DNA of 64,000 bases from a virus. Each line of letters begins with the position of its first letter. Positions within the stretch are counted from its first letter, which is position 1. A program made the translations under genes and the position numbers. Shown one piece after another: positions 34,513 through 56,125 of the stretch. The stretch is from IMG/VR virus record IMGVR_UViG_3300035703_000053, positions 19,754-83,753 of that record; one strand, written 5' to 3'. The notes beneath the pieces are model-generated. The model was not told the origin of the DNA and ran no database searches. It saw only the letters and a list, made by a program, of their open reading frames with translations.

Positions 34513-34645
34513 ATTACCTATTTGTAGTTAGGGCGGCCCCTATAGGGCCCAAATAGGATTAAAAATTACCTGACGCTTCTCCAACCAGCTAACCGAAGTG
34601 GAATGTGGGAAGAAAAAAAAGAATAGGTGAGTGGTTGAATATTGT

Positions 34646-34675
34646 ACGGGGGCTGCGCATCCGTTAATAACGCAG
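34646..34675 (+). ncRNA. H-type pseudoknot, family A copy 1
   Basis: ACGGG/TCCGT and CTGCG/CGCAG; repeated at 35068. Confidence 0.6.
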
Positions 34676-34697
34676 AGTTCTACCACAGGTTAGTTCA

Positions 34698-34934
34698 ATG
34701 ACTGAGCGTGTGAAGCGTTTTGAGAGGGCAGCGAGCATGTTGGTTGCTGGCTGTAAGGTTAGCGTGTTGGTAAGTGAGTTACCGCAGGGTAACGTGCAAG
34801 CATGGCTAGCTGAATTGAAAGGTTACGTAATGTTTGGTCACACTGATCCAGGGGATGAGTGGATTTATAAAGTTTACGTTACTGTGAAGAACGGTCGAGC
34901 AGTAGCGCAGGCGAAAGTAGTGTACGTTAATTGA
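34698..34934 (+). CDS. early hypothetical protein
   Basis: Starts 22 nt after family A element. Confidence 0.6.
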   Translation: MTERVKRFERAASMLVAGCKVSVLVSELPQGNVQAWLAELKGYVMFGHTDPGDEWIYKVYVTVKNGRAVAQAKVVYVN

Positions 34935-35067
34935 GGATAAGTTGGTTTAATCCGACATTATCTGATAAGTAATTGTACTTACTTGTCAATTGTCAGCGTT
35001 TCCTGACACGACTTTTCGGCTACCCGGCGCGAGGCTTGCGGGAAAGACCGTGTGACAGCTGGTAGTA

Positions 35068-35095
35068 ACGGGGGCTGCGCATCCGTACAACGCAG
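35068..35095 (+). ncRNA. H-type pseudoknot, family A copy 2
   Basis: Same stems as copy 1; loop 3 differs (ACAA vs TAATAA). Confidence 0.6.
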
Positions 35096-35118
35096 AACAT
35101 TCCATCGCATTCAACGCA

Positions 35119-35295
35119 ATGATTTATTCGGTATGCATTAAGAGTTCGTTGTCGTATCAAGATTTCTTGTTTGCCAAAACATTGTATAGCTCAGTAGAGA
35201 AAGAGTTTTCTACTGAGCAACAAGCTCAACAATATATCCAATCTTTTGAAGATTGGGAGCGTAACTATTTACATATAGAAGTGTTTCCGTTCTAA
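35119..35295 (+). CDS. early hypothetical protein (58 aa, not in track)
   Basis: MIYSVCIKSS...EVFPF; starts 23 nt after element. Confidence 0.55.
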   Translation: MIYSVCIKSSLSYQDFLFAKTLYSSVEKEFSTEQQAQQYIQSFEDWERNYLHIEVFPF

Positions 35296-35303
35296 GTTTT
35301 AAC

Positions 35304-35369
35304 GCCTGATGGTGCAGGAAGGGTTCGACTCCCTTCCCAGGCATTGCCCCCAGCGGAGATGGGCACCGC
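35304..35369 (+). ncRNA. T-loop module (family B1) plus pseudoknot (family C1)
   Basis: GCCTG..GGAAGGG-TTCGACT-CCCTTCC-CAGGC, then TGCCC/GGGCA and GCGG/CCGC. Confidence 0.65.
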
Positions 35370-35385
35370 ACAACAGGAGTTTCCT

Positions 35386-35481
35386 GTGGACTACACACCA
35401 GTCGGTCAGGTTATTGCACCTTACGTTTCACTGGTTGCAATATTCATTGCTGCCTTTGTAATAGGTTACGTAACCGACTGA
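35386..35481 (+). CDS. 31-aa hydrophobic peptide (not in track)
   Basis: AGGAG RBS, GTG start, one predicted TM segment; stop lies inside B2. Confidence 0.5.
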   Translation: MDYTPVGQVIAPYVSLVAIFIAAFVIGYVTD

Positions 35482-35549
35482 TCCGTATAAGCGGGTGACC
35501 AGGTGCAAACCCTGGTCCAGTTATTGCCCCCAGCGGAGATGGGCACCGC
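35476..35549 (+). ncRNA. tRNA-like three-way junction (B2) plus pseudoknot (C2)
   Basis: GACTG/CAGTT, CCG/CGG, GACCAGG-TGCAAAC-CCTGGTC; C2 identical to C1. Confidence 0.7.
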
Positions 35550-35566
35550 ACAATCCACTGCAAAGC

Positions 35567-35782
35567 ATGTACATCATCTTTGTTAATGGCGAACAGCATA
35601 GCTGCTATGGCTCTAACGAATACGTTGAGGCCATAGAAGAAGCTGCTCAGCTGGACCACATGTACAACTCACCTGAGTTGAACGGTGGCGTCCAGGGCGC
35701 CACAGCGGTCGAGATTCTGACTGTATCAGGCAGGATACTGTCTGATGCAGAGCTTGATGCTCGTGCAGCTATGGCTGACTAA
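35567..35782 (+). CDS. early hypothetical protein
   Basis: ATG 35567 (MYIIFVNG) after C2. Confidence 0.6.
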   Translation: MYIIFVNGEQHSCYGSNEYVEAIEEAAQLDHMYNSPELNGGVQGATAVEILTVSGRILSDAELDARAAMAD

Positions 35783-35856
35783 CTGATCCGTACACACGGA
35801 CTGGGAGGTGTGAGCCCTCCCTCAGTTATTGCCCGACCGTAGGGATGGGCTCCTAC
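35781..35856 (+). ncRNA. tRNA-like three-way junction (B3) plus pseudoknot (C3)
   Basis: AACTGA/TCAGTT, TCCGT/ACGGA, GGGAGG-TGTGAGC-CCTCCC; GCCC/GGGC and GTAGG/CCTAC are compensatory relative to C1/C2. Confidence 0.7.
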
Positions 35857-35860
35857 ACAC

Positions 35861-36157
35861 ATGGAGTTATCCATGGATTTGACTACAGGTTGGCAGCAAC
35901 ATCCCAACGTGCCTGGTGGTTACCACCTGGTTTACGTTGATGATCTGGTCGGTGACTTATCCATTGTTACTGGACCGAGAGGTTCAGGGCTAATGGCATC
36001 TAACGACCCAGGTCAGGAACCTACTTATGAAGTGTGGTTTCCAGGGATGGCTGATCCAACCGGTCACCTAACACTTGATGAGATCAAAGGGATCATCAAG
36101 TACATGCGTCAACGTGAGCAGGAGCGTATGAACTACTGCTACAACGAAGACAACTGA
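35861..36157 (+). CDS. early hypothetical protein
   Basis: 98 aa (or ATG 35873 with GGAG); stop lies inside B4. Confidence 0.6.
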   Translation: MELSMDLTTGWQQHPNVPGGYHLVYVDDLVGDLSIVTGPRGSGLMASNDPGQEPTYEVWFPGMADPTGHLTLDEIKGIIKYMRQREQERMNYCYNEDN

Positions 36158-36220
36158 TCCGTATAAGCGGGAGGCAGGGTGCAAACCCCTGCCCAGTTAT
36201 TGCCAACCACTGAGGTTGGC
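36152..36220 (+). ncRNA. tRNA-like three-way junction (B4) plus hairpin
   Basis: AACTG/CAGTT, CCG/CGG, GGCAGGG-TGCAAAC-CCCTGCC, then ATT-GCCAACC/GGTTGGC. Confidence 0.7.
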
Positions 36221-36231
36221 TTGCAAACACA

Positions 36232-36405
36232 ATGGGCATTCGCAAAACTTTGGCCAATGCACTTAACTCGACAGCAGCAATGCTGGAGAGTGACACATCT
36301 AAAGAGTACATCAGCGCCAAGCTGAGTGAGTACCGTATCCGTGCGGCAGCAATCATGATGCCAAAGGATATGGCATTCATCATTACTCCTAAGACAGACA
36401 TTTGA
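36232..36405 (+). CDS. early hypothetical protein (57 aa, not in track)
   Basis: MGIRKTLANAL...PKTDI after B4. Confidence 0.55.
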   Translation: MGIRKTLANALNSTAAMLESDTSKEYISAKLSEYRIRAAAIMMPKDMAFIITPKTDI

Positions 36406-36436
36406 TCTCAACAGTCAACTTAATTCAATTCAGCTT

Positions 36437-36664
36437 ATGTTTATCTATCAACCAAAGGATGCACTTGATCGTGTCGTATGGTATGGAGGTGAATCTACTC
36501 AGCTCCACTATGAGCAGGAAGTAGATGGATGGGACGGCAATCCTGATTGGATTGAACGTTCAGTTCGTACTCTTGGTGGTGGTATACCAGCGGGAGTATC
36601 TGAACTACAAGCCGAGCTTGTGGATTATTACAACTACTGTCAGTGCGCAGTTAACTACGATTGA
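36437..36664 (+). CDS. early hypothetical protein
   Basis: 75 aa. Confidence 0.6.
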   Translation: MFIYQPKDALDRVVWYGGESTQLHYEQEVDGWDGNPDWIERSVRTLGGGIPAGVSELQAELVDYYNYCQCAVNYD

Positions 36665-36665
36665 C

Positions 36666-36723
36666 TCCTGTAATTAACCCTTTGCTTTGGCAGAGGGTTT
36701 CCTACAGGATTCAACAATCCTGT
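36666..36723 (+). ncRNA. long hairpin with alternative 3' hairpin, family D1
   Basis: TCCTGTA/TACAGGA and AACCCT/AGGGTT; alternative ACAGGATT/AATCCTGT. Confidence 0.65.
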
Positions 36724-36748
36724 CACTCAACTCAACTAGGACTCAACA

Positions 36749-36988
36749 ATGACTCCTGCATACGTTGAACGGCTACTTACACAAGATGCTCGACTGCTTG
36801 CCAGGAGAGATTCCCCTGCCATTGACCAAGATCTTGAGCAGCAGCGTCAAGCTGCACTCGAAATCTTTTTCAAATGGCAGGATGATGCCTGTCAATTTGA
36901 AGACGTTATACCGTTCTGTGTTGTGCTCCAGCGCAAAGTAAATCTCAATCGAGATTTGCTACGTTGGGAACGCCAGAACGCAGACTGA
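36749..36988 (+). CDS. early hypothetical protein
   Basis: 79 aa between D1 and D2. Confidence 0.6.
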   Translation: MTPAYVERLLTQDARLLARRDSPAIDQDLEQQRQAALEIFFKWQDDACQFEDVIPFCVVLQRKVNLNRDLLRWERQNAD

Positions 36989-36989
36989 C

Positions 36990-37060
36990 TTCTGTACTTA
37001 ACCTTCCGTTGATATGAATTCGTATCGGCGGTAGGTTTTCTACAGGACTCAACATCCTGT
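36990..37060 (+). ncRNA. family D2
   Basis: TTCTGTA/TACAGGA, AACCT/AGGTT, longer apical stem; alternative ACAGGA/TCCTGT. Confidence 0.65.
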
Positions 37061-37103
37061 CACCAGTACATACGTACTACCAATCCAATTCAACACAACG
37101 GTC

Positions 37104-37523
37104 ATGTTTAGCAACACCATTATCGGTCGCGTTGTTTACATGGAGCCTGCCGTGCATGAAGGTAGGGAATTCCTGGCTATCAAGCTGGCAGTATCCGATA
37201 TCTCTGGCAACGAGATCCGTATTAAATTCAACAACTCGAACGGGTTGTTTACTGCGTACAAGAATGGCACACTCGTTATTGGTCACCAGCTAATCCTTAC
37301 TCAGTTCGACGTTCGTCTTAATAGCATTCGTACGCATTACCTCAAAGATGGCCTGCTTCATCAGCTGAGGTATCCGGAGATTGCACTGACGAAGGTCAGA
37401 GCTTTTATGGGTTCAGCTCCAAGGCAGAAGGCAGAAGTGCCTCATGCCTACACCGATAACCAACAGGTGGAAGAGCTGACACCATACGGTGGCGAACCAA
37501 CGCTAGAGACTGTACCGTTCTGA
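37104..37523 (+). CDS. OB-fold / SSB-like protein
   Basis: NTIIGRVV start and acidic ...ETVPF C-terminus. Confidence 0.5.
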   Translation: MFSNTIIGRVVYMEPAVHEGREFLAIKLAVSDISGNEIRIKFNNSNGLFTAYKNGTLVIGHQLILTQFDVRLNSIRTHYLKDGLLHQLRYPEIALTKVRAFMGSAPRQKAEVPHAYTDNQQVEELTPYGGEPTLETVPF

Positions 37524-37524
37524 A

Positions 37525-37592
37525 GTCTGCACTTAACCCTTCTGTCGAGAGACAGTGGGTTTTCTGCAGACATCTCACCGCAGGTGTCTGTA
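37525..37592 (+). ncRNA. family D3
   Basis: GTCTGCA/TGCAGAC, AACCC/GGGTT; alternative TGCAGACATCT/AGGTGTCTGTA. Confidence 0.65.
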
Positions 37593-37611
37593 CTATCCAT
37601 CAGCTCAACTT

Positions 37612-37815
37612 ATGAAACATGTAATCAAGCTCAAGCCTAAACACTATGTTCACCTCGATTCTTACGGTGAGTCTCATGAGACTCGCGGTAGTGAGGTGAT
37701 TGTCCTGGCCTTGGGTATACTCATCAGTGCACTCACCGTAGGTGCATTACTTGGCACTGATATTACTCAACCTACTCAACAGAACCATGGCAATTCACAT
37801 CGCACTGATCGTTGA
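37612..37815 (+). CDS. small membrane protein
   Basis: ATG 37612; predicted TM segment VIVLALGILISALTVGALL. Confidence 0.55.
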   Translation: MKHVIKLKPKHYVHLDSYGESHETRGSEVIVLALGILISALTVGALLGTDITQPTQQNHGNSHRTDR

Positions 37816-38014
37816 TGCTACTGGCCGCTATGCCCATGTTTGGGGAGAAGCTTCAAGTTGGGATGACTTCATTGACCAACTTGAAGAACTAGGCGCAGAA
37901 GTAATTGAAGAACAAACTTCTGATTGGGAAGGTTATACCAAGGAAGAGATAGATGAAGATTGTATTTCAATTGGTAAGTTATTAATTGATACAGACTTTG
38001 TACCTTATGAATAG
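37787..38014 (+). CDS. early acidic hypothetical protein
   Basis: ATG 37787 (MAIHIAL). Confidence 0.55.
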   Translation: MAIHIALIVDATGRYAHVWGEASSWDDFIDQLEELGAEVIEEQTSDWEGYTKEEIDEDCISIGKLLIDTDFVPYE

Positions 38015-38058
38015 GCCACCCATAACTGGAGTGGAATGACTCCAGATTTGAGTAGGCT

Positions 38059-38103
38059 CCCCCTGGCCCCCGGCCAACAGCCAGCACCAGGGATATGGCT
38101 GTT
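38059..38103 (+). ncRNA. pseudoknot, family F copy 1
   Basis: CCCTGG/CCAGGG and AACAGCCA/TGGCTGTT around CCCCCGGC. Confidence 0.5.
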
Positions 38104-38169
38104 TAGTGTTTGACTTTACTTTATTAAGTATTTGAGTATTTGAAGTTTATTCAATTTACTTATATGGAT

Positions 38170-38196
38170 GGACCTGAGCATGTCCTTAAACTGCTC
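38170..38196 (+). ncRNA. 27-nt H-type pseudoknot, family E1
   Basis: GGAC-CT-GAGCA-T-GTCC-TTAAAC-TGCTC. Confidence 0.75.
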
Positions 38197-38219
38197 AGCA
38201 AACTTATCTATTACACACC

Positions 38220-38492
38220 ATGACTACACTTGAAGATTTTGCACAAGAAAACGCTATATATCCTTGGCTTGCCAATGATTGTATGGCGGATAATGCTTTA
38301 GATCAGAACTACAACGCTGACTTGCTTGATTCCATGGCTGACATGGCCTACGAACAAGAGCAAGCCATGCGTGAATCAAATGAAGATGACTGGACCCTTG
38401 TAGATCGAACCGATGGAATTGTATCGGTAGATCTACTTAATGGCTATGTAAACTTATTTGAAGACATTATCCATGATGACGAAACACACTGA
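38220..38492 (+). CDS. early acidic hypothetical protein
   Basis: Starts 23 nt after E1. Confidence 0.6.
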   Translation: MTTLEDFAQENAIYPWLANDCMADNALDQNYNADLLDSMADMAYEQEQAMRESNEDDWTLVDRTDGIVSVDLLNGYVNLFEDIIHDDETH

Positions 38493-38561
38493 TCCCACAA
38501 TGGATGACATAATTATTGTCATCCTTGCAATCATTTCAATCATCATTACTGAACTAATCTC

Positions 38562-38918
38562 ATGCTTCACCCCATCACTCAAGAAATCGCTGCAACCTTC
38601 GGGTACCAACCCTTCGACTCAGAAGAAGGTCAGCAGCAGTACCAAGCAGAGTGCGACTTCCAGAACGCACCAAAGGGAGCAATCCCCTGCACTGGTAACG
38701 TCTACAGAAACAAGCAGGGAGTCCTGCGTTGTTACTGGATTCCAGCCGGAGGTAACTACTCGGCCCAAGACAAGGAGGAACTCGAAGGCTGGTACGACAT
38801 CCCAAGCAACGAAGATATCGAGGAGTGGGTGTTCGACAGCATCTGTTTCACACCAGCAGATGATGAAGTAGAACCAGACCACCCTGATAGCTGGCTCTCA
38901 ATCCTTGGATTGATTTAA
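38562..38918 (+). CDS. hypothetical phage protein
   Basis: PSNEDIEEWVFDSIC.TP..DEVEPDHP.SWLSILGLI C-terminus. Confidence 0.65.
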   Translation: MLHPITQEIAATFGYQPFDSEEGQQQYQAECDFQNAPKGAIPCTGNVYRNKQGVLRCYWIPAGGNYSAQDKEELEGWYDIPSNEDIEEWVFDSICFTPADDEVEPDHPDSWLSILGLI

Positions 38919-39014
38919 CCTATGTCATATAACGCAAGTGTAATGATGACATATGCCATTCGCGAATAGCGAATATGTAAGTACCAGGGGTATTGCCAGA
39001 TAACCACTGGCCTA

Positions 39015-39054
39015 CCCCCTGCACCCCCGGCAGAAGTACCAGGAGATAACTTCT
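39015..39054 (+). ncRNA. pseudoknot, family F copy 2
   Basis: CCTG/CAGG and AGAAGT/ACTTCT around CCCCCGGC. Confidence 0.5.
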
Positions 39055-39087
39055 ATTAGTAAATAACCTAACCAATGCATTAAGCCA

Positions 39088-39420
39088 ATGGCACAAACCA
39101 AATCATCTCAACGTAAACAACAACCATCTCCTGATTACCCTCAAGGTAAGCACACAGTTACATTCACAGACATAGATGAAGAAGATTGGTGGTTAATCAC
39201 AAACTTATTCAAAGGACGTATTGATTACTTTAATCAACGTTTACAAGAAATTCAACATTCTAAAGATCCGGATTTAATACGGAGAAACACAGAGTGGCTA
39301 GAAGAAACAATAGAACGTTTGGAGATTAGACTACATCAGTTCGAAGATCAGATCAGTCCTACATACTTTAAGCGTAAGCGTGCAGAACATGCCGCTCGCA
39401 TAAAGCAACCAAACATTTAA
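39088..39420 (+). CDS. hypothetical protein
   Basis: 110 aa. Confidence 0.6.
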   Translation: MAQTKSSQRKQQPSPDYPQGKHTVTFTDIDEEDWWLITNLFKGRIDYFNQRLQEIQHSKDPDLIRRNTEWLEETIERLEIRLHQFEDQISPTYFKRKRAEHAARIKQPNI

Positions 39421-39491
39421 ACACTGGGCATTCATGTATATACATGTTGTAAGTCCCAGGGGGTTTAGAAATTACTCAACACACTCTTGTC

Positions 39492-39818
39492 ATGACAAAC
39501 AAAGTCTTGAAGTTTGAACCAACCATCTATAAGAAATCAGATGGTACAGAGGTTGTATTCCAAGTCAATGATTCCACACGCATTGACATGATCATTACAG
39601 AACTACAAGCTATCTATGCACGTGAACAGAAACGTGACTTGATGGCACTGCACCTTCCATATGAAGCACCTGAGCTGCTGCTGGAAGCCATTGGTCTGCT
39701 TGAGAAAGCAACTGAGTGGGGTGAACCAACAGACGATGATCTATGTGGTGAGCCACCAGTGACCATGGCTGAGATGCACTCAGCTGCATGGAAGGAACAT
39801 CAAGAAGCACACCGGTAA
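39492..39818 (+). CDS. hypothetical protein
   Basis: 108 aa; GEPPVTMAEMH..AW.EH C-terminus. Confidence 0.6.
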   Translation: MTNKVLKFEPTIYKKSDGTEVVFQVNDSTRIDMIITELQAIYAREQKRDLMALHLPYEAPELLLEAIGLLEKATEWGEPTDDDLCGEPPVTMAEMHSAAWKEHQEAHR

Positions 39819-39928
39819 CCATTCACATACCGCAAGGTTAAGAACTGGTTAACACAGTGGTCATGGCTTGACACCACCCGGTAGACTGGCCGTGACCACA
39901 CACTCAACCTCTACAAAACCTACATTAA

Positions 39929-40132
39929 ATGTCCGACAAAATCAGCATTCCAAACTCAATCAACTCCAACAATCTTGCTGCAATGCAACTTGTAGCCAAG
40001 ATGAAAGAGTCTGCAGACAAGCATGGTATTGGCTTCATTGGGGGATTTATATCTCCCGATGGAGAGAAATTTATTATGACGAATATGGATGATGAAGATT
40101 CCCAGGCCTTGCTGCCTGAGAATCTTAAGTGA
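39929..40132 (+). CDS. hypothetical protein
   Basis: 67 aa. Confidence 0.55.
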   Translation: MSDKISIPNSINSNNLAAMQLVAKMKESADKHGIGFIGGFISPDGEKFIMTNMDDEDSQALLPENLK

Positions 40133-40148
40133 ATCTTAAATTACACAC

Positions 40149-40970: not shown

Positions 40971-40976
40971 TTGACT

Positions 40977-48815: not shown

Positions 48816-51402
48816 TACATTTCTTATCTTTGATTGTGAGACGGACGGCCTCTATGATGCAGTGACAACTATCCATTGTCTTGTCATCTACGATGTCGTC
48901 CGACAACAAACTTTTAGCTATGGGCCTGACCGCATTGCTGATGCTCTTGCTCACCTGGCAACTGCTGATGTTTTGATTGGCCACAACATTATCTTTTATG
49001 ACATTCCTGTCATTGAAAAACTTTATTCAAGTTACGCATTTAAATCTACAAACCTTTCATTTAAATCCAAGCACGTCATCGACACACTTGTATGTACAAG
49101 ATTGATCTGGCCCAAGGAAGTTCTCTATGAACTTGACACAGAACAATATCCGCAGGTTCCAAAGGGCTTGCGTGGATCCGCATCACTTAAGGCATGGGGA
49201 TGGAGGCTGGCCGATCATAAGATCGACTTCAAAGATTTCTCTGAATACAGCCAAGAGATGCTTAAGTACTGTATGGCACCCCATCACAAGGTTTTGCGTG
49301 ATGACCTCCGCTGGATTGAATGCGGTTCTATTAATGTTGGTGATGCTATTCTTGGTTTCGATGAATACGGACCAAACAGAAAATTCAAAGCTACAAAAGT
49401 ACTCGTAAAAAACTTTGATGAAGCTGAGCTATTTGAAGTTGTTTTAGAGTCAGGTAAAGTATTTCATGTAACCAAAGAACATAGATGGCTGACTTCATTA
49501 GTCCGTACTGACGGCACTGGTTACCTTCAAGGTAATTGGGTAGAAACTCAGAACCTCCGTACAGATAGTTCTTGCGGCTCAAAAGTACCAAGATTTTTTG
49601 AGCCTTGGGAAGAAGACCTTTCTAAAGATGCTGGCTGGCTGGCAGGAATGTTTGATGGTGAAGGTACTATCTCAAAGAAACGTGTTGACTTTAGTATTGC
49701 TCAAAGACCTGGTATTACATTAAAGAGGCTTGAAGAACTTCTTTGTACTAAATACAATAAAGACTGTGTAAAACATGTCATTAAAAAAAATTCAGATTGT
49801 TTGTCTTTACGTTTTACAGGTAATCAATATTCAAAGATTGAGTTTCTTGGCAAGATTAGGCCAGAGAGATTGATAAATAAATTTAGTTTTGATCAAATGG
49901 GGCGCATGGAAATTAAATCTTCGTGTTTAGTGGATCGTGTCATATCCGTTAAAAGCATTGGCAAAGGAACAATAGTTAAGTTGACAACTGATTCTTCTAC
50001 TTTTGTATTAGATGGTTATCCAATGCACAACTGCCAGCAGGACGTGGCAGTCACTAAGAAGCTTTATGAACTTATCCAAAAACAAAACTATCCAGAAGCA
50101 GCGCTCAAGCTGGAGCATGAACTTGCTGTCTCCATTAACAAACAAATTAGAGCAGGTATTCCTTTTGATGTTGATGCATGCCTTGATCTCGTGGATGATC
50201 TACGAGCAAAGGAAAAAGAACTTGAGTTACAACTAAAGGAAATTTTTCCACCTATTAAACACGAATCAATTTTTGTTCCAAAGGTAAACAACAAGAAACG
50301 TGGTTATGTTAAAGGTCAACCCTTCACTAAAGTTACGTATCAGGAGTTTAATCCTGGGTCTCGCGATCAGATTGTACAGCGTCTCACAGAAAAATATGGA
50401 TGGCAGCCCGAAGCCACCACTGAGAAAGGTAATCCAATTCTTAATGATGATGTACTTGAAACTTTGCCGTACCCAGAAGCAAAACCATTAGCTGAATATA
50501 TGTTGATCAAGAAACGTCTTGGTCAGATTGCTGATGGTAATAATGCTTGGCTCAAGTTAGTAACTGAAGACTGCAAGATCCATGGTGATGTAGTCACTAA
50601 TGGATGTATAACAGGAAGGGCATCTCATCGGACACCAAACATGGCTCAGGTTCCAGCAAGCTATTCACCTTATGGGAAGGAATGTCGCAGCCTTTTCTAT
50701 GCACCAAACAATTGGGATCTTATTGGTATTGATGCCAAAGCACTAGAGCTACGTTGTCTAGCTGGTTATCTTGCTCTCTGGGATGACGGTGAATACGCAA
50801 GTATAGTCACTAATCCCGATATTGATATTCATGTTTATAACCAGCAGATGTTTGGTGTTGCTACACGTGATATATCAAAGAGACTGCTATACGCCCTATT
50901 ATATTCTTGTGGTGCAATGAAAGCTGGTACACTAATTGATCCGAATGAAAAAGATGAAACAGTTCTCAGAAGACTAGGAAGTAATGCAATCAATTCATTC
51001 ATGAAAGGTGTGCCGGCACTTAAGAAACTTAAAGAGCAGATTGAAGAAAAGATTGCAACGCGTGGTTATCTCAAGGGATTAGATGGTCGTGTGTTGTATT
51101 GCCGTTCTGCATTCAAAGGATTGAACGTATTACTACAGGCAAGTGGCGCAGCAATCATGAAGCAAGTAGTAGTGAATGTACATAACAACATTGAGAACAG
51201 TCTTGGACTAGAGCATGGCCAGGATTGGGAGCAACTCTTGTTCATACACGATGAGATTGAGGTGGCATGTAGTCCCAGATACACAGAAGACATCAAGACT
51301 GAAGCACTGAAAGCCTTTGAGGAAGCTGGAGAATTCTTTAGCTTCCGTTGTCCTATTGAGGGAGATGCTAAAGTTGGTCGCACTTGGTACGATGTTCACT
51401 AA
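48754..51402 (+). CDS. polA: family A DNA polymerase (T7-like) with 3'-5' exonuclease and intein
   Basis: FDCETDG, GHNIIFYDIP, FNPGSRDQI, TGR.SH..PNMAQVP, DAKALELR, K.LLYALLY, HDEI. Confidence 0.95.
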   Translation: MTQKLTVKNSQFKISPGSSTDTFLIFDCETDGLYDAVTTIHCLVIYDVVRQQTFSYGPDRIADALAHLATADVLIGHNIIFYDIPVIEKLYSSYAFKSTNLSFKSKHVIDTLVCTRLIWPKEVLYELDTEQYPQVPKGLRGSASLKAWGWRLADHKIDFKDFSEYSQEMLKYCMAPHHKVLRDDLRWIECGSINVGDAILGFDEYGPNRKFKATKVLVKNFDEAELFEVVLESGKVFHVTKEHRWLTSLVRTDGTGYLQGNWVETQNLRTDSSCGSKVPRFFEPWEEDLSKDAGWLAGMFDGEGTISKKRVDFSIAQRPGITLKRLEELLCTKYNKDCVKHVIKKNSDCLSLRFTGNQYSKIEFLGKIRPERLINKFSFDQMGRMEIKSSCLVDRVISVKSIGKGTIVKLTTDSSTFVLDGYPMHNCQQDVAVTKKLYELIQKQNYPEAALKLEHELAVSINKQIRAGIPFDVDACLDLVDDLRAKEKELELQLKEIFPPIKHESIFVPKVNNKKRGYVKGQPFTKVTYQEFNPGSRDQIVQRLTEKYGWQPEATTEKGNPILNDDVLETLPYPEAKPLAEYMLIKKRLGQIADGNNAWLKLVTEDCKIHGDVVTNGCITGRASHRTPNMAQVPASYSPYGKECRSLFYAPNNWDLIGIDAKALELRCLAGYLALWDDGEYASIVTNPDIDIHVYNQQMFGVATRDISKRLLYALLYSCGAMKAGTLIDPNEKDETVLRRLGSNAINSFMKGVPALKKLKEQIEEKIATRGYLKGLDGRVLYCRSAFKGLNVLLQASGAAIMKQVVVNVHNNIENSLGLEHGQDWEQLLFIHDEIEVACSPRYTEDIKTEALKAFEEAGEFFSFRCPIEGDAKVGRTWYDVH
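49270..50031 (+). mobile_element. intein (254 aa) with LAGLIDADG remnant
   Basis: KY|CMAPHHKVL...TKEHRW...WLAGMFDGEG...YPMHN|CQQD; removal restores ExoIII YCQQD. Confidence 0.92.
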
Positions 51403-51407
51403 TGTCC

Positions 51408-51434
51408 CGTCCCAGGTAAGACGTTAAACTGCCT
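51408..51434 (+). ncRNA. pseudoknot family E5
   Basis: CGTC-CC-AGGTA-A-GACG-TTAAAC-TGCCT. Confidence 0.75.
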
Positions 51435-51455
51435 TAACACTTTCTTTTTGATCCG

Positions 51456-52265
51456 ATGAATTTTGCAACAGTTTGTGCACAACTTGCCGAGGATCCTCGG
51501 GAGGTTTATACCAGTGCAACCTCAACTGCTATCCGCTGTAACGTGATGTTGCCTCCAGTAGGTAACAAAGCACCGACTCTGATTGAACTGAATGCTTACG
51601 GCAAAACTTCCGAGCGACTTGCGCGTCTCCAAAAGAACGCACAGATTTACATTCACGGCGCCAAGCTACGTTTCGATCTTGACGCAAGAGCGTACTCACT
51701 ACATGGAGGAGTTATTGCACAAGTTAACGATCAGTTCCCAATCCTCAACACAGTCATCCTTAGTGGACGTTGTGTAAAAGATATTGATACTGCCGATCAA
51801 CGTGCATTTAAAACTACTGCGTCAGGTCTGATGATTTGTAATCAGACATTGGCAGTAAGCACCGGAAGGAATCAATCAGACTTGTTCAACTTCTATGCCA
51901 TCAATTCCCATGAAGACAAGCTAAACCAGGCTCAGCTGCTAGCTGACTTCACGCGCAAGGGCGTGGGGCTGACGATCCAGGGTCGGTTGGTTACCGATGC
52001 CTGGAAGGACAATGACTCTGGTGAGAAGAAAGCTGTGACTAAGATACAGCTAGTGTCAATGACTCTTGCACCTAAGCCCCAGGGTAGTGGGCAAGAAATC
52101 AAACCGCAAACTACGGTTAGCTCATCGGAGAATGTGACTTCCCTTTGGGGTGGTCGCACTGTGGAAGAGTCACAAGATGTGTGGAATCAAGCATCTGGTG
52201 GTGGACTTCCCGATCTGCCGGGCCAATATGGTACGGCACCTGACCTTGACGAAATCCCTTTCTGA
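51456..52265 (+). CDS. ssb: single-stranded DNA-binding protein (tandem OB folds)
   Basis: NTVILSGR, KG..LTIQGRL.TD.WKD..SGEK, DEIPF tail. Confidence 0.8.
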   Translation: MNFATVCAQLAEDPREVYTSATSTAIRCNVMLPPVGNKAPTLIELNAYGKTSERLARLQKNAQIYIHGAKLRFDLDARAYSLHGGVIAQVNDQFPILNTVILSGRCVKDIDTADQRAFKTTASGLMICNQTLAVSTGRNQSDLFNFYAINSHEDKLNQAQLLADFTRKGVGLTIQGRLVTDAWKDNDSGEKKAVTKIQLVSMTLAPKPQGSGQEIKPQTTVSSSENVTSLWGGRTVEESQDVWNQASGGGLPDLPGQYGTAPDLDEIPF

Positions 52266-52268
52266 ACC

Positions 52269-52511
52269 ATGGCGCTCCAAATGAACATTACTGAACTTGA
52301 CTTCAGTTTGCTTGATGCAATTGCCTATGAGTATTTCATGGACAATCTAAATGAATGTATTGAAGTGAACAGCGAAGATGGCGCTGATGTACTATCTCAA
52401 TCTGTTGAACTTCTTGCAGAACTTTCATTCTGTATTGGAGAAATGTTTGTACAAAAACGTCTGAACTATCTTGAGCGCAAGCACAAAAAAGAACAGGAGA
52501 GCAATGACTAA
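52269..52511 (+). CDS. hypothetical protein
   Basis: 80 aa. Confidence 0.55.
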   Translation: MALQMNITELDFSLLDAIAYEYFMDNLNECIEVNSEDGADVLSQSVELLAELSFCIGEMFVQKRLNYLERKHKKEQESND

Positions 52512-52713
52512 TTTTAAATTGGTAAAACGTGCGTTTACATTTACTTTTGTGGAAGATGACTTTAGTTGCGTTCTTGAGAGTCAAGCTGTAACCACTGATG
52601 AAGTTATGGTACACCTCATTCAATTTCTTCGGGGGTGTGGGTACCAGGATGAAAGCATCTATGACGCAATGCGTGAGGCGATTGATGAGCGTGATGCTTT
52701 CAACAAATGCTGA
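52504..52713 (+). CDS. hypothetical protein
   Basis: AGGAG RBS; FLRGCGY motif. Confidence 0.6.
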   Translation: MTNFKLVKRAFTFTFVEDDFSCVLESQAVTTDEVMVHLIQFLRGCGYQDESIYDAMREAIDERDAFNKC

Positions 52714-52778
52714 AATGGCCCTGCACACTGGCCTCCGGACGGCCTTAAAAGCGTCGATGTCCAAACCCTGAAAAAACC

Positions 52779-53894
52779 ATGACTACAACTCCGGTTGACA
52801 TGATGTCTGAAGAATGGATGGACAACATCCAGGCTTCTGCTGCTTCTAATTATGGTTCTGTTCCTTCTCTGAAAACTTCTACAAAAATGACTGTGAAGAA
52901 AACGTCTGCTCTTGCAACTCGTGGTATCGAGTCTTTCAAACTATTTCAATCTAAAGAGTTTGTATCTGGTTACCAGAATCTGGTGACAATTCAGCCGTTG
53001 AATAAGTCTAAGACTCGTGGTTGGTTTGTTCGTAACTCTGACCTGGATACTTGCGGCTGGAGTGCAACTGAAGATCAGTTTGCCAAAGGTTCTGTTATCT
53101 GGAACTACAAGCAAACATTTGGTATGGCACCTAACACTTCTGTTGAAGAGGGCCTTAATTTCACTGAGCCTCGTCTCCAGATCCTATTGCGTTCTCCCCT
53201 CATGGTTGAGGAAACCACAGGGATGCGTCAAACGATTGGAACCTTTGACGATCCAGATGTCAAAGAATTGTTTGAAGCCGATAAGATTGCATCCGACCTT
53301 GCCAACAGCAAGGGCGAGATGTACAAGCGTAAGTACAGTGTACGTACAAAGTATCTGGTGTATATCCTGACCCAGGACAATAAGCGTGCTCACAAAATTC
53401 CTATGGTGCTTACCCTCAAGGGTCTTAATGGTACTGACGTCAGCGACAAAGTCAAGCTGTACGAAAGGGAAATGTCTAAGTGCTTGAGCAAGGCACTAGA
53501 CGCTGAAGTACCACTGAGCTTTAATGAAAAGTTCTATGCCACTACCGTATTTGCTCCGGTACTTGCCAATGAGATGCGCGGCGCCAACAACGTTGAGATC
53601 TGTGCAATTGAATCTTTTGACATACCTGATTACAGCAACCAAGAAGCCGCTGTCGAATCACTAAATCGCTTGTCAATTCCTGATGAAGATCGTGAATCTA
53701 CTTGGAAGTTCCAAGAGTTGTTCCAGGATTACATCAACCAGCATTCTCGGCAAGATGCAGAGAAACTTGGTGGTGCATATGGAATTAAAACTGGTGTAGA
53801 GATTCTGCCTGTATCTCGCACCACGGATGCAGTTGATGTGAAAGCATTAGCTGGTAGCTATGATGTCACGGGTGAGGATGCTAGTCTGTCGTGA
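52779..53894 (+). CDS. hypothetical protein in replication module (DUF5895-like, tentative)
   Basis: 371 aa; PRLQIL.RSPL and HKIP.VLTLKG segments. Confidence 0.6.
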   Translation: MTTTPVDMMSEEWMDNIQASAASNYGSVPSLKTSTKMTVKKTSALATRGIESFKLFQSKEFVSGYQNLVTIQPLNKSKTRGWFVRNSDLDTCGWSATEDQFAKGSVIWNYKQTFGMAPNTSVEEGLNFTEPRLQILLRSPLMVEETTGMRQTIGTFDDPDVKELFEADKIASDLANSKGEMYKRKYSVRTKYLVYILTQDNKRAHKIPMVLTLKGLNGTDVSDKVKLYEREMSKCLSKALDAEVPLSFNEKFYATTVFAPVLANEMRGANNVEICAIESFDIPDYSNQEAAVESLNRLSIPDEDRESTWKFQELFQDYINQHSRQDAEKLGGAYGIKTGVEILPVSRTTDAVDVKALAGSYDVTGEDASLS

Positions 53895-54114
53895 CTTTCT
53901 TTGGGATGCTATTGAAATGACTTGAGTAATTCTCGTTCATTAATTCCATAGCATCCCTGACTAATCCTTTAATTGCCATCTGCCGTGTTGTTGCAATCTT
54001 TGTCAGCAGCACGGCAATTTCTTTTAGCTCACTAAGTGATGTACATTCATTAATTGTTCTGAACATCTTTTCTTGCCAGAACAAATCTTCTGGAGACGAT
54101 TCGAAATGTAACAT
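53881..54114 (-). CDS. divergent NblA-like helix-hairpin protein (tentative)
   Basis: SPEDLFWQEKMFRTINECTSLSELKEIAVLL; lone antisense gene in this arm. Confidence 0.45.
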   Translation of the reverse strand: MLHFESSPEDLFWQEKMFRTINECTSLSELKEIAVLLTKIATTRQMAIKGLVRDAMELMNENYSSHFNSIPKKVTTD

Positions 54115-54194
54115 GCTATTAATTTGGTTTTGTTTATTCTACTCACATAGTTAAATCCTGTTTTGAATTAAAGGTTGTATTTAGAAACACATTC

Positions 54195-54392
54195 ATGAAG
54201 CCCGAACACAAAGCAATGTTTAAGTATGGAGGATCCTTTGGCCTGGTTGGTGCAGGGCTGCTTGCTGCTGTGGGCACTCCTGTGGCATGGGCTGCGCTGG
54301 CTTACGGAACCTACAAGGTATCCAAGGCGGCGTACCAAAACGCCAAGCTCAGTGCTATGCTCCAGGAAGACGACGGCAATTGGCGCGTCTAG
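54195..54392 (+). CDS. small hydrophobic protein
   Basis: Gly/Ala-rich predicted TM segment. Confidence 0.55.
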   Translation: MKPEHKAMFKYGGSFGLVGAGLLAAVGTPVAWAALAYGTYKVSKAAYQNAKLSAMLQEDDGNWRV

Positions 54393-54416
54393 TCAATCTC
54401 AACCTAATCTCAACCT

Positions 54417-55355
54417 ATGTCTACCCAAGTACAAGAAGAACTTAACGCAGCGCAAGCGTGCATCTACACACGTACCAACATTGCGCGTGCGTACCAGGGC
54501 TTTGATGACACCGAAGTTGCTGGCATTTATTTGCGAGGTGATCATTGTGTTGTGGTGCATCGCGATGGTGTTGAGCAGACTTTTGAGCGGTCATTGATTA
54601 AAGCTGCGCACCAGTCTTATACTCATAGACTCAAAGACTTCTTTTCTTACCTTGGTCCCCATTATCGTGGCCCTAGTGTATGGCATAACAATGCTTACAT
54701 TATGTTTAAGGGCTGGCACTACACACACTCACTCGGACACCTGACTTCAAATGCAAAACTACAACAGCACTGGGCCGACAAATTTATACACCTATCAGAC
54801 TCTGCCAAAGTCACAACCCTCCTCCAGTCCAACCAAACGGACCTGGGGCATCTGGTTGCGCCGGACGGGATGCGGCTTTCAAATCGGCCGATTGATATGG
54901 ACGCTGAGTTGGTGGAAAACGAAAGTTCCATTCAGGCACCTGAACCTTGGTGTTCATGCGGGTCCTTTCAGCGTCAGCTCAACAATGTGGATTTGTTCCG
55001 ACAAGAGATTGAAGGATTCAAGCCATGGTGCATCCACTTGACTTGGTTCCACAAGTACCGTGAACTGTTGTGCAAACGCACAGAAGCACGTAACGCATCA
55101 ACCAGTGGAACGCCAGATAAGTGTGTAGCCTGGTGGTATGCACCACCTGCAGACCACACCAATGATGGACGCTTTGTGCTTTTGTATACCAAGTCTGGTG
55201 CACAGGCTCCGTTGACGCACTGGCGTACCTACAAACCAAAGGAAATTTTTACTCAGCACCAGGCGTGGGATTTGTTTTTCAGTATGATGGAGGCTGGCTA
55301 CGTACCATTTCCTGGTGTTGCTTTGCCTCAACTTCAATCAGCAATTAAGAAATGA
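54417..55355 (+). CDS. SWIM zinc-finger protein
   Basis: WCSCGSF...KPWCIHL. Confidence 0.65.
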   Translation: MSTQVQEELNAAQACIYTRTNIARAYQGFDDTEVAGIYLRGDHCVVVHRDGVEQTFERSLIKAAHQSYTHRLKDFFSYLGPHYRGPSVWHNNAYIMFKGWHYTHSLGHLTSNAKLQQHWADKFIHLSDSAKVTTLLQSNQTDLGHLVAPDGMRLSNRPIDMDAELVENESSIQAPEPWCSCGSFQRQLNNVDLFRQEIEGFKPWCIHLTWFHKYRELLCKRTEARNASTSGTPDKCVAWWYAPPADHTNDGRFVLLYTKSGAQAPLTHWRTYKPKEIFTQHQAWDLFFSMMEAGYVPFPGVALPQLQSAIKK

Positions 55356-55385
55356 AAACACACGACATCTCAAAGAACTAAATAA

Positions 55386-55637
55386 ATGACTGATGACATT
55401 CTTGATTATGCTCGTCAGCTTGCAACTAAACCTATGACCAACAACTCAAACAACAACTGGCTTCGAAAATTAAAGATTGAATGTATTGAAGAACAAGAGG
55501 ATGGTAGCTTGACTATCCAAATTGAATGGGATGAAACAGACCCAGACCTTGAGTACTGGGTATCATTAGGGAAGGAAGGACAAAAAACCTTTTTCCTTGA
55601 TTTGTTAACCAACGCAATCACTAGCCATGGCAATTGA
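55386..55637 (+). CDS. hypothetical protein
   Basis: EEQEDGSLTIQIEWDETDP motif. Confidence 0.55.
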   Translation: MTDDILDYARQLATKPMTNNSNNNWLRKLKIECIEEQEDGSLTIQIEWDETDPDLEYWVSLGKEGQKTFFLDLLTNAITSHGN

Positions 55638-55941
55638 TCTTTACGGCATTGATGAAGATCGTTACATTGAAATCTTTAAAGAGAAAGCTGGATTGTTGTA
55701 TCGCACTATGCGGGAAATGATTCGGGTATCTCTTGAAGAGCAAGTGGATCTTAACCACTGGCCGCACGAAACAATTTGGCGTATGTATGAAAGCATTTCA
55801 TATGATGCAAACGAAGAAGCTCGGCAGATTACAAAAAAGGAATGCCCAAGCAAACTTCCTGACTATGATCTGGGTCCAACCAGGGGTGAACTGATGGATG
55901 AAATCCAAAACATCAAAAAGATGTTGGACACACCTGAGTGA
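55627..55941 (+). CDS. hypothetical protein
   Basis: 104 aa. Confidence 0.6.
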   Translation: MAIDLYGIDEDRYIEIFKEKAGLLYRTMREMIRVSLEEQVDLNHWPHETIWRMYESISYDANEEARQITKKECPSKLPDYDLGPTRGELMDEIQNIKKMLDTPE

Positions 55942-55946
55942 TCAGT

Positions 55947-55973
55947 CGTCCTGGTCATGACGTTAAACTGACC
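55947..55973 (+). ncRNA. pseudoknot family E6
   Basis: CGTC-CT-GGTCA-T-GACG-TTAAAC-TGACC. Confidence 0.75.
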
Positions 55974-56005
55974 AACTCATCAGTCTAACTTACGACTTCA
56001 GTTTA

Positions 56006-56125
56006 ATGTTTGAAGCAATCTTTTCTACTGTTCTTCCTGTTTTCAAAGATCTTCTTATAACAGCAGCCGCAGCGCTGCTGGCGTATGGACTCAACAAACT
56101 TCAGTCTTACTTTCAAACCATCTGA
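56006..56125 (+). CDS. 39-aa hydrophobic peptide (not in track)
   Basis: MFEAIFSTVLPVFKDLLITAAAALLAYGLNKLQSYFQTI after E6. Confidence 0.55.
   Translation: MFEAIFSTVLPVFKDLLITAAAALLAYGLNKLQSYFQTI

Follow-up and report, generated by a model that had tools for sequence, protein, structure and literature searches.

The window analyzed here is a 64,000-nucleotide (nt) stretch of viral DNA, bases 19754 to 83753 of the 83,753-base record IMGVR_UViG_3300035703_000053. Plausible genes lie exclusively on the plus strand from ∼34.7 kilobases (kb) to past 57 kb and include those for thymidylate synthase, DNA polymerase, SSB, and an HNH endonuclease; genes of structural size occupy the minus strand before 34.1 kb. 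Among 10 larger proteins compared with PHROG, only thymidylate synthase, DNA polymerase, SSB (phrog_44), and HNH were recognized. In the phage collection, Synechococcus phage S-EIVl is the sole cultured relative, with 79.5% DNA identity over ∼940 nt and a counterpart 67.8% identical to the family A DNA polymerase of the window. Among the plus-strand genes lie seven compact, covarying RNA folds, distinguishable by sequence and held to exact spacing rules relative to stop and start codons. These elements are real RNA-level structures, not DNA repeats, and are conserved across the whole phage lineage. The question that they address is how phages whose early genes lack Shine-Dalgarno (SD) sites control the abundance and lifetime of individual messages within a 20-kb operon. 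Our tentative reading, which we hold to be quite possible though short of probable, is that by analogy with known systems they would be cistron-boundary modules of the long codirectional early and middle transcripts of an S-EIV1-like lake cyanophage, limiting RNA decay and processing.

Elements were located by reading the gaps between open reading frames (ORFs) on the plus strand from 34.6 to 56 kb and by repeat and self-BLAST searches. Covariance models for E, for B with C, and for D were built from the window copies alone; the relatives came from the surroundings of DNA polymerase relatives (37 loci) and of relatives of ORF 37104-37523 (9 loci), and relatives of family A were traced by BLAST and pattern. 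Covariation was gauged against shuffled alignments and, for E, also with slid partners. Start calls were ATG only, except in the survey of E copies from other viral loci and in bacterial stretches. An earlier note on this DNA had listed 20 elements in six families. Eighteen were found (two of A, four of B, three of C, three of D, and six of E), and its two F elements stand as weaker candidates of uncertain identity; family G and a G-like copy before tRNA-Leu had gone unlisted. Its statement that pairing is kept while sequence changes holds in relatives for B, C, D, and E, and for A too; F is not among the families confirmed. The families follow one another along the early region as it described (A, then B with C, then D, then F/E), and the same order is seen in related locus L047 (A at 3185, B at 3538-5182, D at 5586-6386, an F-like element at 8770, and G at 10386).

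Searches of Rfam and of related contigs, which the note had proposed, left the families unmatched in Rfam and found A to E and G recurring in related viral contigs. In an Rfam 15 scan of the window, tRNA alone reached the gathering score, and A to E and G were unmatched, also by GP20-b (RF03003), PreQ1, Pistol, and Fluoride; a permissive search of positions 34000-57000 (E value up to 5) returned tRNA and four chance matches of the small nucleolar RNA type, nothing more. As far as such model searches reach, no catalogued family searchable in Rfam 15 corresponds to A, B, C, D, or G. Some families may be listed under other names among the 10,006 candidate viral RNAs, 12 of them before gp32-type genes, reported in PMC10690425. 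S-EIVl itself carries seven E, two B, and one D element in the 41.9 kb examined. Eight of these 10 were compared with its annotation, and all eight lie in, or overlap by a few bases, the gaps between annotated genes, with no RNA feature annotated at those eight sites. S-EIVl on Synechococcus sp. PCCC-A2c is a cultured phage/host pair carrying E, B, and D.

Family E is a small H-type pseudoknot that resembles coremin, a motif of eukaryotic RNA viruses, and it occurs six times in the window.

38170-38197, plus strand: E0, coremin-like H-type pseudoknot with both stems changed (GGAC/GTCC, TGAGCA/TGCTCA), 22 nt before ATG 38220, 44.4 bits
40977-41004, plus strand: E1, coremin-like pseudoknot, 6 nt past TGA
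41686-41713, plus strand: E2, coremin-like pseudoknot, 5 nt past TGA and 29 nt before the ATG of a PcfJ-like protein
47694-47721, plus strand: E3, coremin-like pseudoknot preceding a phrog_1392 gene, just upstream of the DNA polymerase gene
51408-51435, plus strand: E4, coremin-like pseudoknot, 5 nt past the DNA polymerase stop and 20 nt before SSB ATG 51456
55947-55974, plus strand: E5, coremin-like pseudoknot, 5 nt past TGA and 31 nt before ATG 56006 of a 39-codon ORF

The E core pattern GWCNTTAAACTG has six matches in the window, all on the plus strand, where 0.10 is expected, and none of 100 shuffles gave six. Among the relatives, the model search returned 126 matches from 24 of 38 sources, 125 of them on the gene strand. 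With both stems scored as a pseudoknot, 96.4% of 979 cells are paired, compared with 84.3% in shuffled alignments and at most 33% when partners are slid, and 131 cells are changed on both sides, compared with 41.5 in shuffles; measures that count pairs or pair types did not rise above shuffles (158 and 106 of 500). Stem 1 (4 base pairs [bp], NGWC/GWCN) is paired in 99.2% of cells across 100 distinct sequences, and stem 2 (six pairs) in 94.5%, with five of the six pairs changed on both sides. Because stem 1 lies outside the search model, its exchanges (CG 78, GC 7, AU 6, UA 4) are unbiased. Frequent G-U pairs together with the strand bias point to RNA transcribed as the gene strand.

The position of E relative to the flanking genes is equally regular. 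In the window, the upstream stop is 5 to 6 nt away at E1, E2, E4, and E5 and 155 and 106 nt away at E0 and E3. After removal of duplicates, of the one minus-strand match, and of matches that failed the simple pattern, the 126 matches gave 101 unique contexts. In 42 of these, an in-frame upstream stop (ORF of at least 40 codons) ends exactly 5 nt before stem 1, and in 56 it ends 5 to 7 nt before; it is nearer than 5 nt in just 2 and absent within 60 nt in 16. The next ATG opening at least 40 codons is 19 to 22 nt past stem 2 in 61 of the 101, with none at 4 to 18 nt, and distances of 136 to 189 nt correspond to a conserved ORF of 37 to 42 codons that begins ∼20 to 30 nt past E. Another 137 pseudoknot-compliant copies from 86 other viral loci have the stop at 5 nt in 35 cases, 6 nt in 11, 7 nt in 10, and 1 nt in 1. 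Leaders that follow E contain 4.7% G (22.5% in the region) and no SD site. The fold heads 25 protein families, six core families keeping it in 7 to 17 loci and the others being lineage specific; it precedes the SSB gene in 17 loci, namely, here (E4) and in 16 related loci.

From its sequence, E appears to be a close relative of the coremin motif of exoribonuclease-resistant RNAs (xrRNAs), also called xrRNA-C, and a new form of a known motif. The earlier note's remark that no described system combines these families must be amended on this point and stands for the other families, given the Rfam 15 result. The coremin motif consists of a first hairpin (hp1) of 3 to 5 bp whose loop reads YGAD or YGNNAD, a spacer of 10 conserved nt, and a second hairpin (PMC6546385), and coremin-like motifs with loops of 5 to 8 nt exist (PMC10520033). 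The motif printed in PMC10520033 has GUCC and GACGUUAAACU in common with E. Family E has the same short hairpin stem (GUC/GAC), and its 4-bp stem 1 is within the range of hp1; next comes GUUAAACU, identical to the first eight positions of the coremin spacer and nearly invariant in E, the last two being the variable 3′ strand of stem 2. A Watson-Crick pseudoknot form, xrRNA-WCC, is known, with three pairs (PMC10321173); the E loop likewise pairs with the spacer as a small H-type pseudoknot, but through five to six Watson-Crick or wobble pairs in stem 2. Like E, coremin occurs as tandem copies, as intergenic copies, and as copies next to stop codons.

Coremin stalls Xrn1 and stimulates frameshifting (PMC10321173) and blocks scanning ribosomes (PMC10520033). 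Its hosts are eukaryotic RNA viruses (beny-, cucumo-, and others), whereas those of E are double-stranded DNA phages and bacteria. PMC5760640 describes a flaviviral xrRNA that stops bacterial RNase J1. A fold-based block is therefore feasible on a bacterial enzyme, as established for the flaviviral xrRNA and not for coremin. Whether E would act on RNase J, RNase E, 3′ exonucleases, or ribosomes is a guess by analogy; to our knowledge, bacteria have no Xrn1. Our literature search, judged mostly from titles and abstract openings, found no prior account of coremin in a bacteriophage or of cyanophage pseudoknots like these.

Other identities for E were considered and rejected. A programmed frameshift or readthrough site is not indicated, as no shared slippery sequence precedes the stops by eye and the frame of the loop ATG is inconstant relative to downstream ORFs. 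A riboswitch (e.g., preQ1-I-like) would not be expected as six copies per genome before unrelated genes, Rfam gave no match, and preQ1-I-type aptamers need a conserved loop nucleotide that E lacks. A self-cleaving ribozyme of the pistol type likewise had no Rfam match to E, and pistol ribozymes carry further helices, which E lacks.

Outside the lineage, the 16-base E core pattern occurs in at least 114 viral stretches, some surely by chance; 80 loci were searched with the model, which confirmed 137 matches in them. A 24-base version occurs in 30 stretches of bacterial genomes and metagenome-assembled genomes (MAGs) from many phyla, with a chance estimate below 0.1. The Firmicutes contig L191 holds four E knots, each 6 to 12 nt past a stop and each directly before a type III hammerhead or hammerhead-like sequence.

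2089-2184, minus strand: L191 knot/hammerhead site
3071-3165, minus strand: L191 knot/hammerhead site
5085-5125, minus strand: L191 knot/hammerhead site
5636-5678, minus strand: L191 knot/hammerhead site

Two of these hammerheads reach the Rfam gathering score, with E directly 5′ of both. By reading, the cleavage site (after GUC) falls 7 to 8 nt downstream of E, so that E stays on the upstream product. The minus strand of L147 has two coremin-type knots, at reverse-complement positions 726 and 1794 (∼1070 nt apart), both directly adjoining tRNA-like genes; their hexaloop CGAAAU obeys the published YGNNAD rule, and a paired stem comes next, the tRNA-like acceptor stem standing in place of the second hairpin. 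The copy at 1794 (within plus-strand 1385-1594) has a canonical T arm, GGGTTCGAATCCC, downstream and a knot of the Watson-Crick type in tandem upstream. In seven Deltaproteobacteria-type MAGs (L170, L174, L179, L184, L185, L190, and L195), the knot follows a conserved stretch beginning CCCATGCAACCCATTGTTC and is mostly followed by a terminator-like hairpin; knot and stretch together may be the 3′ end of some structured RNA. In Bacillota (L183, L186, L194, and L196), the knot is followed by a conserved ∼60-nt leader with GCGTRTCTGGGC and GGTCRGATGTGC and then a strong SD and ATG, unmatched in Rfam. These hammerhead, terminator, tRNA, and SD contexts argue against a role tied solely to SD-less starts, and protection by E could be directed to either side.

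Several of these sites recall signals to RNA polymerase. In locus L132 (4613-4802, GC-rich contig), three E knots stand in tandem before a gene, within a single divergent intergenic region. A short terminator-like hairpin follows each of the first two, and the array has the look of an attenuator or of several small RNA units; E is followed by a terminator-like hairpin in L126 and by a terminator and then a tRNA in L181 and L188. The elements could then work through processive antitermination (HK022 put is a precedent for an antitermination RNA), pausing, or attenuation, with the pseudoknot deciding the fate of a downstream terminator, or E could be a promoter, its TAAACT having twice scored as a −10-like hexamer. 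In the window, however, no terminator-like site follows any E copy, and terminator-like sites at 34000-53900 are not above shuffles (19, with 14.7 expected); promoter-like sites there number 22, with 36.7 expected, and none falls at an A, B, or D element. Both counts fit long transcripts. The covariation of both E stems is unexplained by a promoter and rules out a DNA-only signal, and we consider action on RNA polymerase very improbable. Boundary modules that limit decay and processing would accommodate long transcripts.

Family B consists of modules that resemble the elbow of a tRNA, most of them joined to a pseudoknot of family C.

35304-35342, plus strand: B1, 5-bp outer stem and 7-bp stem with T-loop TTCGACT, small first hairpin missing, 8 nt past the stop, 75.1 bits
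35476-35522, plus strand: B2, outer stem, small hairpin, and 7-bp stem with loop TGCAAAC, containing the upstream stop, 94.2 bits
35781-35827, plus strand: B3, tRNA-elbow-like, upstream stop TAA (35780-35782) in the outer stem, 84.6 bits
36152-36198, plus strand: B4, tRNA-elbow-like, upstream stop TGA (36155-36157) in the outer stem, 91.9 bits
35345-35369, plus strand: C1, pseudoknot directly 3′ of B1 (TGCCC/GGGCA with GCGG/CCGC)
35525-35549, plus strand: C2, pseudoknot 3′ of B2, ∼18 nt before ATG 35568
35830-35856, plus strand: C3, pseudoknot with altered stem 2 (GTAGG/CCTAC), in-frame ATGs 35861 and 35873 downstream
36201-36220, plus strand: variant at the C position, plain hairpin GCCAACC/GGTTGGC after B4 instead of the C pseudoknot

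The search for B with C gave 43 matches from 16 of 47 sources, all on the plus strand. Of the 21 pairs in B, 18 are changed on both sides, among them all 12 pairs of the 5+7 stack, and every measure exceeded 500 of 500 shuffles. The 12 stacked pairs, for which coaxial stacking would be our expectation, are followed by an unpaired A (rarely C) and then UU. The loop is a 7-nt loop of the T-loop type, with U at position 1 and A at position 5 by eye (TGCAAAC, TGTGAGC, TTCGACT, TTCGATT, TGTAAGT, and others; a few begin with A), and some relatives have textbook T arms, e.g., GGTTCGATTCC. TGCAAAC, the commonest loop, resembles the unusual T-loop TGCAAGT of the phage's own tRNA-Leu. In 24 of 32 copies (three 5′-truncated rows left out), the TGA within CTGA of the outer stem is the in-frame stop. 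In family C, stem 2 takes the forms GCGG/CCGC, GTGG/CCAC, GTAGG/CCTAC, GCAGG/CCTGC, GCAG/CTGC, and TGTGG/CCACA and has at least 4 bp in 24 of 33 unique copies, the others being plain hairpins.

A T-loop, a 12-bp acceptor/T-arm stack, and an unpaired discriminator-like base are thus shared with tRNA; the stack, however, is split 5+7 rather than 7+5, and there is no D arm or anticodon arm. Neither tRNA finder called B: ARAGORN reported the tRNA-Leu and one minus-strand tRNA only, and the Rfam tRNA model reported 43707-43789 only. Transfer RNAs punctuate mitochondrial polycistronic transcripts, the mascRNA of MALAT1 is released by tRNA-like processing, and RNase P cuts bacterial operon mRNAs. As in mitochondrial punctuation, B sits between cistrons and upstream reading frames run into the tRNA or tRNA-like fold; unlike known systems, each B is fused to a downstream pseudoknot or hairpin. 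Titles and abstract openings yielded no relevant account of intergenic tRNA-like or RNase P elements in polycistronic phage RNA.

Upstream of B and C, family A opens the plus-strand block with a further pseudoknot.

34646-34675, plus strand: A1, H-type pseudoknot (ACGG / CTGCG .. CCGT / CGCAG), 22 nt before ATG 34698 of the first gene of the plus-strand block
35068-35095, plus strand: A2, second A pseudoknot, 23 nt before ATG 35119

Twelve unique A copies from the window and related loci place the ATG 46 to 55 nt past the GGGG start, and stem 1 covaries (CGG/CCG for AGG/CCT).

Downstream of the B and C elements lie three copies of family D, long hairpins that have two mutually exclusive pairings.

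36666-36723, plus strand: D1, long hairpin 1 nt past TGA, with a 7-bp basal stem, a 3x3 internal loop, and an AACCC/GGGTT helix; alternative hairpin at 36704-36723
36990-37060, plus strand: D2, same architecture as D1, 1 nt past TGA; alternative hairpin at 37042-37060
37525-37590, plus strand: D3, same architecture as D1, 1 nt past TGA, with covarying basal stem GTCTGCA/TGCAGAC; alternative hairpin at 37567-37590

The model search found 54 D matches in 19 of 47 sources, 40 of them on the plus strand, the 14 on the minus strand being the same palindromic hairpins re-read; 10 of 12 pairs are changed on both sides, a count that takes in rows of those 14 matches. The 3′ strand of the basal stem can pair a second time, with a segment 4 to 7 nt downstream (5 to 9 bp), in all 31 unique plus-strand copies, and this segment covaries with it (TACAGGA/TCCTGTA, TGCAGAC/GTCTGCA, GCAGTCCT/AGGACTGC, TGCAGAG/CTCTGCA, and GCAGGGT/ACCCTGC). 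The two pairings are mutually exclusive yet both conserved, which gives D two states. In 20 of the 31 copies, a single nt separates the end of the stop from the stem, and the triplet before the stem is TGA in 29, TAA in 1, and a shifted TAG in 1; it is still a stop whenever it has varied.

RNase III processes the early mRNA of phage T7, and SP82 early RNA has a 5′ stabilizer. Like the T7 sites, D is intercistronic, ∼20 bp long, interrupted by an internal loop, and repeated between early genes, and its shape (7 bp, a 3x3 loop, and then at least 5 bp) suggests a possible RNase III substrate. Set beside the T7 sites and the SP82 stabilizer, a cut in D would leave hairpins at both new ends. D differs from both in that it has a built-in covarying second partner for its 3′ strand, begins 1 nt past the stop, and belongs to a phage of a cyanobacterial host.

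Family G and a tRNA-Leu gene occupy further gaps of the same kind.

39424-39464, plus strand: G1, CTGGG-CAT-[hairpin]-TGTAAGT-CCCAG, 3 nt past the stop and 32 nt before ATG 39492
43670-43703, plus strand: G-like fold, CTTGG..GTAAGT-CCAAG, inside the 3′ end of ORF 43465-43716, ending 3 nt before the tRNA
43707-43792, plus strand: tRNA-Leu(UAA), Rfam tRNA, with the upstream ORF stop at tRNA positions 8-10 and an ATG by eye at ∼43815

The general form of G is CTRGG-CAT-[variable hairpin]-GTAAGY-CCYAG, with outer stems CTGGG/CCCAG or CTAGG/CCTAG. Related loci hold 41 unique copies, none on the minus strand, and the exact pattern occurs in at least 120 viral stretches, of which about a dozen would be expected by chance on a rough estimate. 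Its 3′ loop heptamer TGTAAGT equals the T-loop variant of some B copies and resembles the T-loop of phage tRNA-Leu. A K-turn reading of G was rejected, as there is no tandem G-A on both strands by eye. Most of the related loci with a called tRNA-Leu(UAA) have a G-like fold a few nt 5′ of it; L030 and L032 are without one. ORF 43465-43716 runs through the fold, and a stop at tRNA-Leu positions 8-10 also occurs in five related loci. Between tRNA-Leu and the next ATG lies a G-poor leader of ∼16 to 26 nt in most loci (21 nt in the window); a molecule that host enzymes must excise therefore sits in a gap of the same type as those of the other families.

At the SSB gene, G stands in place of E in L020, L024, L025, L026, L027, and L028 and, by eye, in L029, so one family can replace another at the same gene. 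This gene also bears on a reading in which the elements are operators at which phage-encoded RNA-binding proteins silence successive classes of early messages, one family per temporal class. T4 gp32, which binds its own leader pseudoknot, and RegA are precedents; the runs of families along the early region with the same order in L047, the conserved loop sequences TTAAAC, GGAGAT, and GTAAGT, and the placement of E before the SSB gene in 17 loci all accord with it. Candidate RNAs also lie upstream of gp32-type genes, and the T4 gene 32 leader, like E4 and its leader, combines a pseudoknot with an unstructured leader before an SSB gene, both according to PMC10690425. The E fold, however, also precedes 24 other protein families, tRNAs, ribozymes, and terminators, and the SSB here is phrog_44, not gp32 type. 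Nor could one phage protein explain an E that is near identical in 30 stretches of many bacterial phyla and in many unrelated viral contigs. With E and G interchanging at the same gene and no RNA-binding family recognized by Pfam among the 52 plus-strand ORFs, an operator role is improbable.

The spacing rules of the families can be stated together. As the earlier note observed, B, D, and most E elements adjoin the upstream stop: E lies at least 5 nt past it (5 to 6 nt in four of six window copies), D lies 1 nt past it, and B contains it in its outer stem (B2 to B4; B1 follows it by 8 nt). Also in line with the note, most elements end shortly before the next start, in most cases by 19 to 43 nt, and in A, C, D, and E the last structure ends ∼19 to 25 nt before the ATG in the window and in relatives. 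E3 is trailed by two in-frame ATGs, 47725 and 47764, as C3 is; in both cases, the second (47764 and 35873) fits the usual spacing of 20 to 40 nt, so that the first may not be the real start. By rough start calls, SD-like words precede 2 of 25 starts among early genes and 9 of 29 among late ones. The leaders of early genes (plus strand, 34.7 to 58 kb) are rich in C, A, and T, depleted of G, and free of SD; those of late genes (minus strand, 5 to 34 kb) are A rich, and in some a clear SD word such as AGGAGG is present. Two kinds of start signal seem to be in use in this phage.

These regularities speak for the main rival, in which the elements would act in translation and nothing is cut. They would insulate SD-less leaders, leave a landing pad of ∼20 nt for the 30S subunit, and stop terminated ribosomes from sliding on, while D would report upstream translation by switching hairpins and each gene would be initiated on its own. 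A distance of ∼19 to 25 nt before the ATG is about that of the 5′ edge of the ribosome footprint, leaders are G depleted and largely free of SD words, and the stop codon keeps a fixed register with B, D, and E. The effects of coremin on scanning ribosomes and on frameshifting, as given in PMC10520033 and PMC10321173, point the same way. Yet G and coremin-type copies before tRNAs and E copies before hammerheads or terminators have no start codon to serve, the start codon is uncovered in either state of D, and the tRNA-like features of B go unexplained. On these grounds, we regard a role confined to translation as unlikely.

A DNA-level explanation, with the elements mainly serving as homology anchors or mobile cassettes for gene shuffling and the RNA folds incidental, draws on copies that are nearly alike. 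In L030, near-identical E-plus-leader units stand ahead of six unrelated ORFs; C1 matches C2 at 95% identity over 37 nt, and B2 matches B4 at 86.5% over 52 nt. The L030 units fit the local duplication suggested by the earlier note, with spread as cassettes, and they fit concerted evolution equally well. The T4 PeSL (promoter early stem-loop) cassettes are mobile regulatory cassettes of T4-type phages, and bacterial repetitive extragenic palindromic (REP) hairpins stabilize upstream segments of operon mRNAs. As in PeSL, repeated structured units here flank small early ORFs and may aid shuffling, and as with REP, hairpins lie just past stop codons. No counterpart of the early sigma-70 promoter next to the PeSL stem-loop was seen here, however, and both systems differ from the seven distinct folds of this array, with their strong covariation and tight stop and start spacing. 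Several features speak against DNA-level units: compensatory changes, frequent G-U pairs (which the opposite strand would show as mismatches), the strict confinement to one strand, the constant register relative to stop and start codons, a conserved association with the same core genes in 10 to 17 loci, and the absent promoter signal. We think such units extremely improbable.

We return to modules that would let cistrons of one transcript be cut apart and protected. In the steps proposed here, the enzymes and the direction in which roadblocks face are what we infer; the structures, conservation, covariation, strand bias, and placement are as observed above. Each gap reads as stop codon, compact RNA fold, G-poor SD-less leader of ∼20 nt, and AUG. 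The A, C, and E pseudoknots and the T-loop hairpin G could form protein-free mechanical roadblocks to exonucleases and to scanning RNase E, and a roadblock at each boundary would give each cistron's RNA segment its own lifetime. The same four families might shield the fold of an adjoining leader, tRNA, or ribozyme from the influence of upstream sequence and of passing ribosomes.

In the ribosome, about 5 nt separate the A-site codon from the mRNA entrance, as established for frameshift signals. Since E lies at least 5 nt past the stop, a terminating ribosome could reach the stop without unfolding it; if ∼5 nt is indeed the entrance distance, E would stay folded during termination, and B and D would have to open. 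Family B would probably be cut by host RNase P and/or RNase Z, like tRNA-Leu, and after a cut past its unpaired A, the upstream RNA would retain the tRNA-like fold while the new 5′ end would carry pseudoknot C. Were the 5′ strand of D removed by an RNase III-like cut, or held by a terminating ribosome, the 3′ strand could pair with its downstream copy instead and form a small hairpin ∼20 nt upstream of the AUG. The link to RNA cutting is indirect but real, to judge from analogy: tRNA-Leu lies in the same gaps, B is tRNA-like, and E precedes hammerheads.

Several observations weigh against this proposal. An RNase P cut at the 5′ edge of B would strip the upstream ORF of its stop in 24 of 32 copies, giving nonstop messages, and one at the 5′ edge of the window's tRNA-Leu would do the same, excision of the tRNA leaving the upstream ORF message without a stop. 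Family E does not follow the coremin loop rule: its 8-nt loop is C-U-R-R-N-Y-A-D, with U or C rather than G at position 2, although the first and the last two positions fit. It also lacks the second hairpin that coremin needs to stall Xrn1 and has a G-poor leader instead, with no conserved hairpin by eye. A role purely as a 5′ cap sits poorly with L191, where E ends on the upstream fragment, and with L126 and L132, where terminators follow E; in L089, E is adjoined at once by an SD and an ATG. Pfam recognized no nuclease family among the 52 plus-strand ORFs, a weak result given that most ORFs match nothing. No sequencing run recorded as RNA was found to contain the stretch; two runs of one study, of uncertain kind and in the form of short contigs that cannot reveal RNA ends, gave 13 short pieces with no joints, and the shared stop of pieces from both at 35030 carries no weight. 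The loci share ancestry, so that covariation cells are not independent events, and the alignments were fitted to the models; the D pair count includes re-read minus-strand rows, and stop and start distances come from crude ORF calls (at least 35 or 40 codons upstream, 30 or 40 downstream).

By anatomy and analogy, the cut-and-protect frame is the best available to us, and a role confined to translation comes next; the remaining weight falls on the three minor rivals described above and on readings that we have not thought of. A bolder proposal, possible but on the doubtful side, is that double-stranded DNA phages of many bacterial phyla use the coremin knot of plant and fungal RNA viruses and that in S-EIV1-like cyanophages it is part of a punctuation code, made of host-cut tRNA-elbow mimics, a refolding hairpin, and interchangeable knots, that produces separately stabilized single-gene messages, much as mitochondria use tRNAs. 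Should such knots indeed stop nucleases or ribosomes of bacteria, the xrRNA principle would no longer be confined to eukaryotic RNA viruses but would reach into bacteria, the recurrence of one 27-nt fold beside ribozymes, tRNAs, and gene starts across phyla would be explained, and the knots would be small protein-free insulator parts for synthetic operons.

The two F candidates lie among the E and G elements.

38047-38100 (approximate), plus strand: candidate F1, C-rich pseudoknot-like, CCCTGG..CCAGGG with CAGCCA..TGGCTG, found in one related locus, weak
38985-39035 (approximate), plus strand: candidate F2, hairpin GGGGTA-GCCAG..CTGGC-TACCCC followed by CACCCCCGGC, kept in L044, L045, L047, L048, and L049

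Just upstream of the array, where genes switch from the minus to the plus strand, an AT-rich gap of 324 nt carries the octamer AGTTAGGG three times (34415-34422, 34428-34435, and 34526-34533). The octamers sit beside a terminator-like hairpin at 34492-34507, and the gap may be a control region of the early block.

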